Shown piece by piece: positions 33,153 to 40,051 of a stretch of 64,000 nt of DNA. This stretch comes from an uncultured Gemmatimonadales bacterium (GTDB lineage Bacteria > Gemmatimonadota > Gemmatimonadetes > Gemmatimonadales > Gemmatimonadaceae). Location of the stretch: positions 992,001-1,056,000 of the forward strand of contig CAWBZV010000005.1 of NCBI GenBank assembly GCA_963793305.1, in the 5' to 3' direction. The notes beneath the pieces were generated by a model. That model saw only the letters and a list, made by a program, of their open reading frames with translations. It had not been told where the DNA came from and did not search any database. Made by a program: the position numbers and the translations under genes. Within the stretch, counting starts at the first letter, position 1. Every line of letters starts with the position of its first letter.

Positions 33153-33431
33153 GTGCTATTACTTCCCATCGTCGGCGAGCAGATCGCCAGCAGGCGCAGA
33201 GCGCTAGGACTGACCCAGCCCGAGCTTGCCAAGAAAGCCAGGGTCGGGCTCTCCACGCTCGATGCGCTGGAAAACGGGCGCTTGGGTGAACTGGGCTATT
33301 CTAGGATAACGAACATCCTGACCGCGCTCGGGCTGGAGCTGAAGCTCCAGGAAGCGCACGCGCGCCGGCCGACGCTTGAAGAACTGATGGACGAAGAAGG
33401 CGATGATCAAGGTTTGGGCCGACGCCGCTGA
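33153..33431 (+). CDS. XRE-family HTH antitoxin (HipB-like)
   Basis: IASRRRALGLTQPELAKKARVGLSTLDALENG; overlaps the hipA start. Confidence 0.85.
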   Translation: MLLLPIVGEQIASRRRALGLTQPELAKKARVGLSTLDALENGRLGELGYSRITNILTALGLELKLQEAHARRPTLEELMDEEGDDQGLGRRR

Positions 33432-34632
33432 GGCGGGCCTGCTCGACCGATATGACGGACGCGGCAGCGCGTTCGCGTATCAGCCCGGGGTATCGCCTGC
33501 GCGCGCGGTGTCCGCCACTATGCCCGTGCGCCTGCCTTCGTATAACGCGCCTTTCGGGCTTCTGCCCATTTTCGAGATGAACCTGCCCGAGGGCGTGTTG
33601 CGCGAGCGGTTACGTCTCGCGTTTGCCAAGGCCACGGGCACGTTCGATGACTTCGACTTGCTGGGCATCGTTGGGCGCTCGCAGGTCGGCCGGATTCGCT
33701 ATACGGGCCAGCAGGAGGATTTGCGGGAGGACGTGCCGTTCCAGTCGGTTGATGAGATTCTCCAGAAACGGCGCGGCGGAGAACTGCTGCGCTATCTGAT
33801 CGACAAATTCGCCACCTTCTCGGGCATCAGCGGCGTGCAGCCCAAGATTCTGGTGCGCGACGACGCGGCTTCCTCGGCACTGAACAAAGGCCATCGCCGT
33901 CGCTCGGAGAGTTTTCACGGCGCCACACACATCGTCAAGTTCTGGGAGCAGAACGAGTATCCACAACTGGCGGCCAACGAGTATTTCTGCCTCAAGGTTG
34001 CGGAACAATGCGGCCTGGAGGTTCCGCCCTACCGGCTGTCCGAGGACGCGCTCGCGCTGGTCGTCGACCGTTTCGATCTGCGGCCGGACGGCACCTACCG
34101 CGGCTTCGAGGATTTTTGCGTGCTCAACGCTCGCCGCACCGATCAGAAATACAGCGGTAGTTACGAGAGCTCCATCATGAAACGCTTCGTCCAGTTTGCC
34201 AACTCGTCACACGTTGGCGAAGACCTGGAACGCCTCTTCACGCTCATCGCGATCAATTGCGCGCTACGGAACGGCGACGCCCATTTGAAGAATTTCGGTA
34301 TTCTGTATGATGACGTGCAGGGCGAAGCCCGTCTCGCGCCGGTCTACGATGTGGTGACCACGTCCGTCTACCTCGCCAAAGACACCATGGCGCTCACCCT
34401 GAACGGAACCACCAGATGGGCGAGCGCCAAAGAGCTGCAACGGGTGGGCGTGACCCGCATGGGCGGCACTCCGGCCCGCGTGAAAGAAATTCTCGATCGC
34501 GTTGACACCGCGATGGCGTCCACGGCCACCGAGATGCGCGCCTACATCGGGGCGCACGCGGAATTCGCGGACCTCGGCCATCGCATGCTCCGCGAATGGG
34601 AACAGGGCGCGGCGCATTCGCTGAGGCGCTAA
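33403..34632 (+). CDS. hipA: HipA-family Ser/Thr kinase toxin
   Basis: P-loop SGISGVQPK, NE..CL, RFD, FEDFC, NGDAHLKNF, LAPVYDV. Confidence 0.92.
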   Translation: MIKVWADAAEAGLLDRYDGRGSAFAYQPGVSPARAVSATMPVRLPSYNAPFGLLPIFEMNLPEGVLRERLRLAFAKATGTFDDFDLLGIVGRSQVGRIRYTGQQEDLREDVPFQSVDEILQKRRGGELLRYLIDKFATFSGISGVQPKILVRDDAASSALNKGHRRRSESFHGATHIVKFWEQNEYPQLAANEYFCLKVAEQCGLEVPPYRLSEDALALVVDRFDLRPDGTYRGFEDFCVLNARRTDQKYSGSYESSIMKRFVQFANSSHVGEDLERLFTLIAINCALRNGDAHLKNFGILYDDVQGEARLAPVYDVVTTSVYLAKDTMALTLNGTTRWASAKELQRVGVTRMGGTPARVKEILDRVDTAMASTATEMRAYIGAHAEFADLGHRMLREWEQGAAHSLRR

Positions 34633-36455: not shown

Positions 36456-37122
36456 TTACTGAAGCGCCACGGCTGGCTTGATGTGTGTCCGTGCCTCGGT
36501 CATGTGCGCGCGCGCGCGACTCATAGCTATTCGGAAGGGCGCAAAAGAGATGCGCTCCAGCCACGGGTCCCATGCGTTCCAGTTCCAGGTCTCGGGGAGC
36601 TCGATTTCGGGGAGATGGCGCCACTGCTGCTTACGGCGCAACCCGAGATAGAGCGTGTCGAAGAGCGCCTTTTCCGCCGTGGCTCGCTGAAACCGCCCCC
36701 ATTTGTCGCCTGGTTCAGCGCCAACTAGCAGGTTCGTTTCGAGTCGATGAAATGCGAACGTCCCCACCGGCGTCTTCATCCTGGCATGTTGCTCGGCTGT
36801 CGCTACGTGCATTCTCGCGTGGAATCTGGGACAGCATGCCGTGCAGATGCAGCGCGGATATGAACGACACGTAAGCTGGCTCCCCCCAGGTTTCCGCGAG
36901 GCGGCCGATCACCAAGTATGGGGTGAAGAGAGTATGCGCCGGGTTGGCCCACAAGCCACGCATGATCCTGGTGACGACGCCGTTCTGCGTGAGTCTGCGC
37001 ATAAGTTTCGATATCGCGACCGCAGATGCCCCGGTTGCGACCGCAACGTCACGTGATGTGAAGATCGGCTCGCGGAGCACGATGTCGCGGATCGCGGCGG
37101 TGCTCAACTCGGTCCGTGGCAT
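36456..37122 (-). CDS. Type IV TA antitoxin, AbiEi-like; +1 frameshift at ~36812 (error or pseudogene)
   Basis: wHTH N-terminus (IFTSRDV…VTRIMRGLW), YVSFISALHLHGMLSQIP, ATAEKALFDTLYL; SD AGGAG before ATG 37122. Confidence 0.82.
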
Positions 37123-37967
37123 TGGTCGGCTCCTGGCGTCTCTGAGAGCACCTCGCCCATCTCGGTGCGTAACTCTTCGAGCCACAGCCACATGCGTTCC
37201 TTCAGTGGCTCCCAGTCCGAAATGGCGTCGTTCCGCAACTCGTCAGGGAGATACGCCGCGACTTGGGCCTCGAAGCTTGAGCGATCAAACATGGCGACCG
37301 TCTCCGCCGATGCGAGGACTTGCGCCGTGGTCATCCGTGTCTTGATCAGCGCTCGTGCTTCCTCGGTCATCACTGGTCCGCACTCGCGAACGAGATGATC
37401 CATGTCGAACACATTGCGGGTCTGCGGAGGATCGCGGCGTGACAGCGCGAGTACCTTGTGCCAGATCGCGACAGGGCCCGGATACGCCGCAATCCTGGCG
37501 CCAGCGGGTACATGGTAGCGTTTGCAGAGATGCTCAGGAATAGGAACGCGGCTCGCTTCACTCGCCCGTGTTTCCTCGCGATGCGATGCCTCGATCTGCG
37601 TGGCATATTGGATCCCGCCGTATATCAGATTCAGCTTCTGCTTAAATCCGCGCGAGTTGTTGCCGCCGCCGTCGATCACGCTAACAGCGAGATCCGTGAT
37701 GCCGACTTTCAGGAGCGCGCGCCGAAACCCAGGATCTTCGATCAGCAAGTTGCGCAGATGTTCGATGAACTTCGTCGCGCGCTTGGGCATGAGATCGAAA
37801 TCAATGTCCTCCGAGTATCGCGGACTCCGATGGAACAGTCGCAGATTCACGCCGCCCTTGAGGCGCAACGGCGGTTCCCCAATGGTCGGGTCGCGATACT
37901 CCTTGGGCAAATGCATGAGCAAGATGCAGTGGAATGCCTCGCGAACCTCGAGTTCAGTCAGGAGCAT
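37104..37967 (-). CDS. Type IV TA toxin, AbiEii/AbiGii nucleotidyltransferase family
   Basis: LKGGVNLRLF…RYSEDIDF; HKVLALSRR…RNVFD. Confidence 0.88.
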   Translation of the reverse strand: MLLTELEVREAFHCILLMHLPKEYRDPTIGEPPLRLKGGVNLRLFHRSPRYSEDIDFDLMPKRATKFIEHLRNLLIEDPGFRRALLKVGITDLAVSVIDGGGNNSRGFKQKLNLIYGGIQYATQIEASHREETRASEASRVPIPEHLCKRYHVPAGARIAAYPGPVAIWHKVLALSRRDPPQTRNVFDMDHLVRECGPVMTEEARALIKTRMTTAQVLASAETVAMFDRSSFEAQVAAYLPDELRNDAISDWEPLKERMWLWLEELRTEMGEVLSETPGADQCHGPS

Positions 37968-38038: not shown

Positions 38039-38773
38039 CTAATGGCGCGCGGTCTGAGCGGGCGCCGTGGGCTGAGGGAGCGGCGGCCCGACGGTGACAA
38101 AGTCCACCTGCGGTAGCTGGGTCTCGCCAAGGGTCACATTCGTGCCCGACCCCACTGCGTCCCCGTCGAGATACGCGACCACACGCTTGGTCTGACCGTC
38201 TTGCCGGTACCATAGATACCGCGTGTACGCTTTGACCAGCGTGTTCCAATCGAGCGAGATCTTCTTGATGAAGTCGAGCGCGTTGCCCACCCGGCAGGTG
38301 AGAAACGTGACTTTGTAGATCTTGTTCGCCTTCATCGCCGTGCCGATGCTGGTGTAGACCGCCCAGTGCGCGAGCCGCCGCTGCGCGCCCGCCGGGTTCA
38401 CGATCTGATCCGTCTGCTTCATGGACTTCCCCGTGGGGTCCCCCGGGAACACGAAGTCGTAGAACGGGTCGACGTAAATCGGCGGATTCCACCCGCGGGC
38501 AAGCTCGAATGTATGGCCCGGTGCGAGCTCGATCGTGCCCTCGCTCAAGCTCAAGGCGCCCCCGTGTCCGACCGCAAAGATCACCTCCCGATCGTTCGTC
38601 ACGTTCGCGAGCCCCTGCACGATCGCGTTTCGCACCTGCTCAGCGCCAAGCGTGTTGCTGATCGGCGCGGATTTGCGATTCTGCGGATCAGCCTTCACGT
38701 ACTGGGCCGCCCATAGGGCATTGAACGCCGGTCCGACACGTGAGGGGGAGGGGTCGTAGAAGACGAGAGGCAT
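38039..38773 (-). CDS. Hypothetical protein with caspase/CPD-like (clan CD) His-Cys motifs
   Basis: 244-aa ORF; VIFAVGHGG and VTFLTCRVG, followed by helix and VKAY strand. Confidence 0.65.
   Translation of the reverse strand: MPLVFYDPSPSRVGPAFNALWAAQYVKADPQNRKSAPISNTLGAEQVRNAIVQGLANVTNDREVIFAVGHGGALSLSEGTIELAPGHTFELARGWNPPIYVDPFYDFVFPGDPTGKSMKQTDQIVNPAGAQRRLAHWAVYTSIGTAMKANKIYKVTFLTCRVGNALDFIKKISLDWNTLVKAYTRYLWYRQDGQTKRVVAYLDGDAVGSGTNVTLGETQLPQVDFVTVGPPLPQPTAPAQTARH
38041..38127. repeat. 87-bp direct repeat, copy 2 (current 3' end of the 38039-38773 gene)
   Basis: 77/87 identical to 36254-36340; last 26 bp identical. Confidence 0.95.
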
Positions 38774-38806
38774 GGTAGAGAATACTACGGCCGGGCCTCA
38801 CCGCGT

Positions 38807-38951
38807 TATACTGGAAGAGGCGTGCAGGGCGCCACCCGTCCGCGGGCAGGACCGAGTCCACCTGGTAGTAAAAACTCGACATACGGTTCTTCACGAACCT
38901 CCTTTCGCCCGACGACCAGCGGACCCCGGGCAGCCCTCGAGGAGGTCCGTC
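38807..38951 (+). promoter_or_regulatory. -10 box plus structured 5' leader (candidate cis-regulatory RNA) of the ankyrin gene
   Basis: TATACT 38807-12; several hairpins; ACCTCCT (38897-903) is the perfect complement of SD AGGAGGT (38940-46). Confidence 0.55.
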
Positions 38952-40051
38952 ATGCCCGACCGTCATTTCCCCGTCCGCCCCAGTCTTGAACAACTGAAGC
39001 ACCAGGCCAAGGACCTGCTCCGCGCGGAGCCATCCCTCGGCAAGCTCGCGCACGCCCAACACGCGTTGGCGCGAAGCTATGGCCTTCCGAGCTGGCCGCG
39101 ACTCGTGCTCGCCTGCCGCATGACCGACGCGATCTGGCGCGACGATGTCGAAGCCGTACGCGAGCTGGTGCTGCAGCATCCGAGAACGCCCGCGGCGTCG
39201 CCCAAAGCAACTGGGGCCCGCCCAGGTCCTACGCGGCGAACCTCGGCCGCGATCGGATTATCGCCATGCTCCGCGAGCTCGGCGCCGATGACCTGAACTT
39301 CGCCTTCGATCGCGCATGCCTGCAGGGCCGGATCGACACCGCCCGCCAACTCTACGCACTGGGCGCGTGCCCCGATGCCGAATCACTCGCCGGCCCCTGC
39401 GAGACCCAATGCGGCCCGGGCTTCGCATACCTGCTCGATCTCGGCTGCGATCTGCACCTCTCCCACATCGCGCTGCTCCTCCAGACCTACAGCCGCAACC
39501 CTCAGGGCAAGCACCAGTGCCTGGAGGCCGCCGCGACGCACGGCATCGCACTCCCCGACACACCGCCGATGGCGATCCACCGCGGCCGCATCGATCTCCT
39601 GGAACACCATCTCGATCGCATCAACGACACGTTCTCCCATGAGGACATCTATCCACCGTCGCTCGGCTGCGATGCCGATCACACGAAGGCGCTCCACGGG
39701 ACGCCACTGGCGGGCGGCGGATTACTGCACCTCGCCGTCGATAACGACGAGATCGAGATCGCCGAGTGGCTGCTCGCGCACGGCGCCAATGTCAACCTCC
39801 GCGCCGCGATCGATGCCGACGGTTTCGGCGGCCACACGCCACTGTTCGGCTGCGTCGTATCGCAACCGTATCGCGTCGGGCGCCGTTCCTCGATGGCACG
39901 CCTACTGTTAGATCACGGCGCCGACCCCAACGTGCGCGCCTCGCTTCGCAAACGCCTGCGCTTCGTGGAAGACGAGACGATGCGCGAGTATCGAAATGTG
40001 ACGCCGCTAGAGTGGGTGGACCGCGACGCGATGCGGCTCATCGCCTCGTGA
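38952..40051 (+). pseudogene. Ankyrin-repeat protein with N-terminal RPxLEQLKxQAK helical domain; -1 frameshift at ~39181
   Basis: MPDRHFPVRPSLEQLKHQAKDLLRA…ARSYGLPSWPRL; second frame continues ENARG…NWGPP.SYAANLG into 39266-40051 with ankyrin motifs (LLHLAV…WLLAHGANVN, GHTPLF…LLDHGADPN). Confidence 0.72.

Follow-up and report, generated by a model that had tools for sequence, protein, structure and literature searches.

In the window (the 64,000-nucleotide stretch of an uncultured Gemmatimonadales bacterium analysed here), a leader of ~135 nt precedes an ankyrin-repeat gene, which raises the question whether this leader is a regulatory RNA and, if so, whether its ligand is the small N-terminal domain of the very protein encoded downstream. 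A sequence-only reading of the locus had proposed as much, namely a translational on/off RNA answering to that domain. Comparative analysis revealed a 5' RNA leader with two long-range pseudoknots (PK1, PK2) and a covarying helix between an internal anti-Shine-Dalgarno (anti-SD) strand and the Shine-Dalgarno (SD) sequence. The features of the leader and of the gene beneath it, whose ATG start codon lies at 38952, are as follows.

38807..38812, + strand: likely -10 element TATACT, with the spacing to the RNA seen in the promoters of other leaders; the window copy has no good -35
38819..38833, + strand: hairpin P1 (GGCGT/GCGCC), the predicted 5' end; 88% paired, 3/5 pairs with both-side changes
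38825..38828, + strand: P1 loop bases CAGG, 5' strand of PK1; 5/5 pairs with both-side changes
38838..38848, + strand: GUCCGC (5' strand of PK2) and the G-NNN-A junction, the most conserved portion of the leader
38849..38859, + strand: hairpin P3 (GGAC/GUCC); 99-100% paired, 4/4 pairs with both-side changes
38861..38864, + strand: CCUG, 3' strand of PK1, pairing with CAGG of the P1 loop
38865..38897, + strand: linker of variable length, including a subfamily-specific GGTTC/GAACC hairpin (17/119 leaders)
38897..38904, + strand: anti-SD, 5' strand of helix P4; 6/6 pairs with both-side changes
38907..38931, + strand: hairpin P5 (GCCCG/CGGGC); 98.7% paired
38919..38924, + strand: GCGGAC in the P5 loop, 3' strand of PK2, pairing with GUCCGC
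38940..38946, + strand: Shine-Dalgarno AGGAGGT, 3' strand of P4; predicted unpaired probability 0.02 (3' domain, window copy)
38952..39116, + strand: N-terminal helical domain (RPSLEQLKHQAK...LARSYGLPSW) with a short loop, distantly related to Pfam Glyoxalase_8
39117..40051, + strand: remainder of the ankyrin-repeat gene, with a frameshift near 39180; its orthologs are ~420 aa long

From 5' to 3', P1 is followed by GUCCGC, G-NNN-A, P3, one purine and the 3' strand of PK1 and, beyond the variable linker, by the anti-SD, P5 with GCGGAC in its loop, the SD and the start codon. Folded as a single sequence, the window leader was no better than shuffles (minimum free energy -55 kcal/mol, z = -0.64), so that the evidence for its structure is comparative. 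Judged across homologs, the leader is a real structured RNA, folded otherwise than the sequence-only reading had proposed. The nine motifs and stems named there were all found where they had been placed, and GGCGT/GCGCC (38819-33) turned out to be the conserved P1; the other proposed stems were rare, CGAGT/ACTCG occurring in 1/119 leaders and GGTTC/GAACC and CCCG-TCCG-CGGG in 17/119 each. The pairing of GTCCGC with GCGGAC, envisaged as a competitor within a switch, is conserved and covarying as PK2. P3 (GGAC/GTCC), P5 (GCCCG/CGGGC), the pseudoknot CAGG/CCTG and the frameshift of the gene had all gone unnoticed. G-U pairs in the sense strand and a varying spacing speak against reading the element as a DNA palindrome.

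The frameshift leaves leader and domain intact. The same letters stand at this site in contigs from X1 and X2, two runs of a single study (X1 may be the source), X2 bridging it only marginally. The genome also encodes a paralog that is intact and likewise preceded by this RNA (G000:C3:1131764-1131891, minus strand). Near the locus lie an AbiEi/AbiEii pair (Pfam, PADLOC; window 36456-37967, minus strand), a pair of HTH and HipA-like genes recognised by eye (33153-34632, plus strand) and a divergent 244-aa ORF (38039-38773, minus strand) with no Pfam or PADLOC match.

Conservation of the fold was assessed in two sets of leaders. Model R1 was built from 69 leaders of the window's phylum with nested stems only (no PK1), and the held-out set comprised 45 leaders plus the window, L122 being left out because it duplicates a row used for training. 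In this set, 91.3% of the cells were paired, compared with 38-48% in slid-partner controls, and 23/32 pairs showed both-side changes, counts that lean upward for the nested stems because the model fitted them. PK1, which R1 does not contain, had both-side changes at 5/5 pairs, while PK2 was invariant here because the DNA search pattern required its letters. Protein-first sampling found the domain in 19/351 Pseudomonadota and 16/301 Actinomycetota genomes; R1 matched 23/34 of the loci at E<0.01, and the pairings were visible by eye in six more. Across 24 protein-first loci, selected because the RNA was evident there, 92% of the cells were paired and PK2 was 100% paired, with 3/6 of its pairs compensated. 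Shuffle controls for pairing ignore the relatedness of the sequences, and two unpublished genomes (L010 from G182, L312 from G923) account for one alignment or count row each, all claims being independent of both. These sequence comparisons show P1, P3, P4, P5, PK1, PK2, the pairing of the SD and the position just after the promoter to be conserved; regions upstream of homologs, where the sequence-only reading had looked to covariation as its check, were indeed conserved and covarying.

As for the promoter, TATACT, from which that reading had started the leader, fared unevenly: a strict scan of the window returned no promoter, but the spacing of this hexamer matches that of its counterparts elsewhere. 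A sigma70-like promoter (TTG(A/C)...-10) was present in 72/118 leaders against 3.7% in shuffles; 70 of these 72 stand 24-29 nt ahead of GTCCGC, and the corresponding distance in the window is 25 nt. Since the promoter lies at a near-fixed distance in most leaders, P1 is predicted to be the start of the transcript.

RNA and domain were found to be tightly linked, whichever of the two served as the starting point. Within the window's phylum (Gemmatimonadota), the domain occurred in 64/301 genomes; 74 of the 82 domain genes in this sample had a leader by the motif rule, seven had none or half of one, and one had a compact variant. A DNA pattern containing no protein information was run over GTDB representatives, and 120 loci were taken from an estimated ~15,000; R1 accepted 46 of them at ≥48 bits, the remaining loci scoring ≤26. 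Directly ahead of the RPxLEQLKxQAK domain stood 45/46 of these RNA copies, the exception (L111) preceding an apparent broken start, and 0/46 preceded an unrelated intact gene. According to record titles, and for some assignments general knowledge, the 46 true copies span 10 phyla (Gemmatimonadota, Acidobacteriota, Actinomycetota, Pseudomonadota, Verrucomicrobiota, Planctomycetota, Chloroflexota, Armatimonadota, Methylomirabilota and Eremiobacterota), and ~5,700 stretches of this class are expected among GTDB representatives (46/120 of ~15,000; a rough figure extrapolated from 1/64 parts). Besides, leucine-rich repeat (LRR) homologs beginning with the domain carried the RNA in 42/43 cases for which upstream DNA was available, as opposed to 0/19 of those starting without it, in a sample of 80 loci that includes many near-copies and 18 loci that were cut or too short. 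No copy of the domain was found in 301 genomes from the phylum to which G303, a Cohnella locus, belongs, and four viral contigs showed a partial domain match and no leader.

Behind the RNA, the domain is fused predominantly to ankyrin repeats, and otherwise to ankyrin plus Clp_N, LRR, DUF1835, APH kinase, beta-lactamase or VOC parts, or it belongs to short proteins. These partners share neither chemistry nor pathway and have the N-terminal domain alone in common, which bears out the earlier suggestion of a portable RNA-protein module, given the many fusion partners that the leader precedes across phyla. More than 6,000 domain matches were obtained among the candidates scored, PF20066 not counted. 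The Pfam search of the window protein left the N-terminal domain without a match. A model of this domain from an ortholog (L006) has four helices (pLDDT 83); a Foldseek search with it gave nothing significant (best E 8.4), a VIA fold search stayed below significance (best Z 3.8), its several RNA polymerase omega/Rpo6 chains at Z 2.7-3.7 being no more than a lead, a PDB sequence search likewise yielded nothing significant (best E 0.063), and an Atlas search returned hypothetical clusters only. Since neither a recognised RNA-binding fold nor a homolog of solved structure turned up, the function of the domain is not readable from its structure.

What the leader does to translation can be approached through the SD. 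In folds of the 3' domain, the unpaired probability of the SD 6-mer was <0.3 in 109/119 leaders, and the anti-SD paired with its own SD region better than with the SD of other leaders in 110/119 (-13.4 versus -9.6 kcal/mol). Together with the covarying helix, this preference makes ACCTCCT a true anti-SD, as had been recognised from the window alone. The second SD blocker once proposed, GCGGACC with the segment following the SD, was found in 1/119 leaders, the window's own, and the competing partners assigned to each blocker proved private to the window copy or its subfamily; the 119 leaders have no conserved anti-anti-SD. Candidate competitors of the anti-SD (anti-anti-SD or ON structure) paired better with their own leader than across leaders in 60/119 and 50/119 cases, i.e. 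none was conserved; toggling of the anti-SD onto the GGAAAGG junction was rejected on the former count (60/119). Locking the core lowered SD accessibility from 0.25 to 0.10 in a nested-only model, of which this drop may be an artefact; it is given no weight here.

The reading that we favour, at a probability of roughly 0.6, is translational autorepression, with the domain binding the leader fold and holding the SD shut; we infer both the binding and its direction from sequence comparison. The folded double-pseudoknot RNA pairs the SD with the internal anti-SD, and the N-terminal domain would bind a putative site in the core of P1, PK1, P3 and PK2, dock this core onto P5 and stabilise the anti-SD helix. 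The protein would thereby cap its own synthesis, probably by repression rather than activation, and the ankyrin, LRR or enzyme portion of the fusion might, speculatively, tune the binding upon a signal. For repression as the direction, we rely on the paired state of the SD in the complete fold, because no conserved alternative ON structure was found. Homologous domains, encoded by Glyoxalase_8 and COG3860 genes, follow RNAs of like topology, which points to deep co-descent of RNA and protein. Against autorepression, physical adjacency alone yields co-inheritance, and a compact leader variant ahead of VOC fusions, which lacks P4 and P5, might operate in a different mode.

The best indirect sign that the domain may need the RNA is the decay of its QAK motif upon RNA loss. 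Among 34 orthologs of the window gene, 7 are without a complete RNA (lost or broken), and the ortholog tree requires 7 separate RNA changes, at least five of them forced by strong branches. In 5/7 of these orthologs, Q or K of the motif is acidic, compared with 0/27 of the others (Fisher 7.5e-5, for a criterion picked after viewing the data). Identity dropped from 0.95 with RNA to 0.80 in RNA-loss orthologs in helix 1 and from 0.93 to 0.84 in helix 2, whereas that of the ankyrin body was unchanged (0.937 versus 0.924). Counter-examples exist in the form of L007 and L030, which kept QAK with a lost or broken RNA, and L219, which has an intact motif and no RNA.

Given this decay, we consider it unlikely that the leader is merely a built-in throttle or a site for a host factor, with promoter, RNA and domain moving as a cassette in which the domain does not bind. 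The SD is predicted to be buried without any ligand, adjacency explains the linkage and there is no anti-anti-SD, all of which would agree with such an arrangement; a plain throttle, however, would require neither a pair of pseudoknots nor bases that hardly vary among 10 phyla. Quite improbable, in our view, is that RNA binding by the domain serves another end, be it an antitoxin-like restraint or localisation complex or the turning-on of translation. This would be in agreement with all linkage and decay data, and the proximity of the window gene to AbiE and HipA-like modules fits it, as does the compact VOC variant, in which core folding could free a pre-start segment complementary, by eye, to P1. 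Yet leaders of the main class retain a covarying anti-SD helix joined to the core, the RNA occurs as a single copy with no repeats, and PADLOC, run on six carrier proteins, returned ankyrin-repeat matches only, in 1/6. An equally small chance falls to a riboswitch for a small molecule or an ion, in which the conserved core would be the aptamer and P4 the expression platform. Two pseudoknots, conserved junction purines, occurrence in many phyla and the SD helix would speak for it, but it is at odds with downstream genes that have the N-terminal domain and no pathway in common, with 0/46 copies ahead of an unrelated intact gene and with the correlated decay of the protein.

VOC fusions occur in the window's genome and on five rhizobial plasmids, and an extended search returned no new ones. 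Their compact RNA keeps P1, P3 and a compensated PK1, has a local hairpin in place of PK2 and is missing P4 and P5 (L086:660-725, L328-L332). The segment before the start codon that looks complementary to P1 may reflect switching in the opposite direction.

An Rfam scan of 38400-39300 gave a chance match only (E 7.9) and no COG3860 (RF02940) at E<=10, so that the earlier placement of this translational-control RNA outside the named families holds, there being no Rfam family of its own. COG3860 is a cis-regulatory motif of 54 nt, and RF02940 reportedly originates in one published RNA study. Like the window RNA, it has a P1-type 5' hairpin with a loop complementary to a segment further along, next a GC-rich hexamer and then a second hairpin; the likeness is one of topology only, and the window RNA stays below the gathering threshold of the family. 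In COG3860, however, the second hairpin comes straight after the linker and AGCUAAA follows, whereas G-NNN-A precedes P3 and PK1 follows directly in the window RNA; the order of junction and hairpin is thus opposite, and the junction sequences are unlike. Also, COG3860 stands upstream of COG3860/DUF2087 genes, the window class ahead of ankyrin, LRR and other genes. Beyond the Rfam model, 5/5 COG3860 copies examined have a hairpin resembling P5, the loop of which pairs with the hexamer in the manner of PK2 (GUCGCC/GGCGAC, AUCGCC/GGCGAU, GCCGCC/GGCGGC), compensation having been established by script in three copies and by eye in two. RF02940 seems to model the 5' half alone of this RNA (L355-L358, L366).

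Profile comparison (hhalign) of the window-class domain with the N-terminal part of Glyoxalase_8 (PF20066) gave 96.6% (E 4.9e-10, 52 columns); COG3860-gene proteins matched a Glyoxalase_8-type profile at 96.1% and the window-class domain directly at a weak 32% (E 5e-4), both from small alignments. By profile, the domain is a distant relative of Glyoxalase_8 and, via Glyoxalase_8, of the N-terminus of DUF2087 proteins. Two carriers alone (L316, L317) passed the Pfam Glyoxalase_8 cut-off, and this family was not among the best five matches per protein for the window protein or 31 homologs from its phylum. Fusion partners in Glyoxalase_8 genes include VOC, Lon-N and pentapeptide parts; the RNA ahead of these genes has the topology of the window leader, with freely covarying PK1 and PK2, and differs from that leader by its AUGGUGAA junction. 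A crude script recovered this topology in 11/14 Glyoxalase_8 leaders (one of the 11 in the wrong register) versus 11/84 shuffles, and an Rfam scan of 9 of those 14 gave no match. RNAs of the AUGGUGAA-junction class lie ahead of Glyoxalase_8 genes at L338-L346, L349 and L361-L365; L347, a weaker Glyoxalase_8 match, carries Rfam COG3860.

Ribosomal-protein leaders sequester the SD and are bound by the product of their own gene. A conserved 5' UTR structure overlapping the ribosome binding site, as in autoregulatory leaders, is present in the window class, which differs from them in that the putative binder is an unannotated domain with many partners and with no known cellular RNA to mimic. The 'protein-binding candidates' of PMC11109978 resemble the window leader in being structured 5' UTRs linked to a gene rather than to a pathway. 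Features such as two pseudoknots and conserved bases are, according to main-text passages of PMC5737381, typical of biochemically sophisticated RNAs; COG3860 is absent from these passages, and the supplement of that paper may hold gene associations. COG3860/DUF2087 appears, in passages of PMC1564403 and PMC7113386, as a domain fused to nucleic-acid-binding proteins. No paper describing the window-class RNA was listed by full-text searches of the open literature, nor was the RNA found in 11 supplements of PMC6429828. Real, widespread and mostly undescribed, the leader represents a new RNA class in the clan to which COG3860 also belongs and is linked to an unannotated domain; its novelty is reduced by COG3860 (RF02940) as a topological relative.

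On a larger scale, chances are about even that we are dealing with an old, widespread plug-in regulator, in which a promoter, a leader and a putatively RNA-binding domain of a Glyoxalase_8-like superfamily have been grafted onto unrelated proteins for feedback; this reading includes at least four co-diverged RNA-domain classes (window class, Glyoxalase_8, COG3860 and compact VOC). The classes may be orthogonal, and the repeat or enzyme domains in the fusions may act as gates on RNA binding. If true, a large unannotated domain and PF20066 would acquire an RNA-binding function, the orphan Rfam motif COG3860 would be explained and completed, and two or three RNA families without an Rfam entry would be added. 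With its 55-residue domain, its 135-nt target and several natural classes, such a system could supply orthogonal parts for translational feedback.

Several loci show further arrangements. OQ572412.1 (19395-23556; L333), an unverified phage record with apparent host chromosomal genes, includes a gene for a domain-DUF1835 fusion, the leader of which is partly degenerate. Tandem domain genes (L027:1234, L027:2704) each have their own leader, the two being of different subtypes, and L257:534 joins a sigma-factor-like N-terminus (by eye) to a degenerate copy of the domain and an LRR part, with no RNA. Proteins of 170-226 aa with no Pfam match above cut-off are preceded by diverged versions of the RNA (L308, L310, L325), and two of these three belong to AT-rich genomes.
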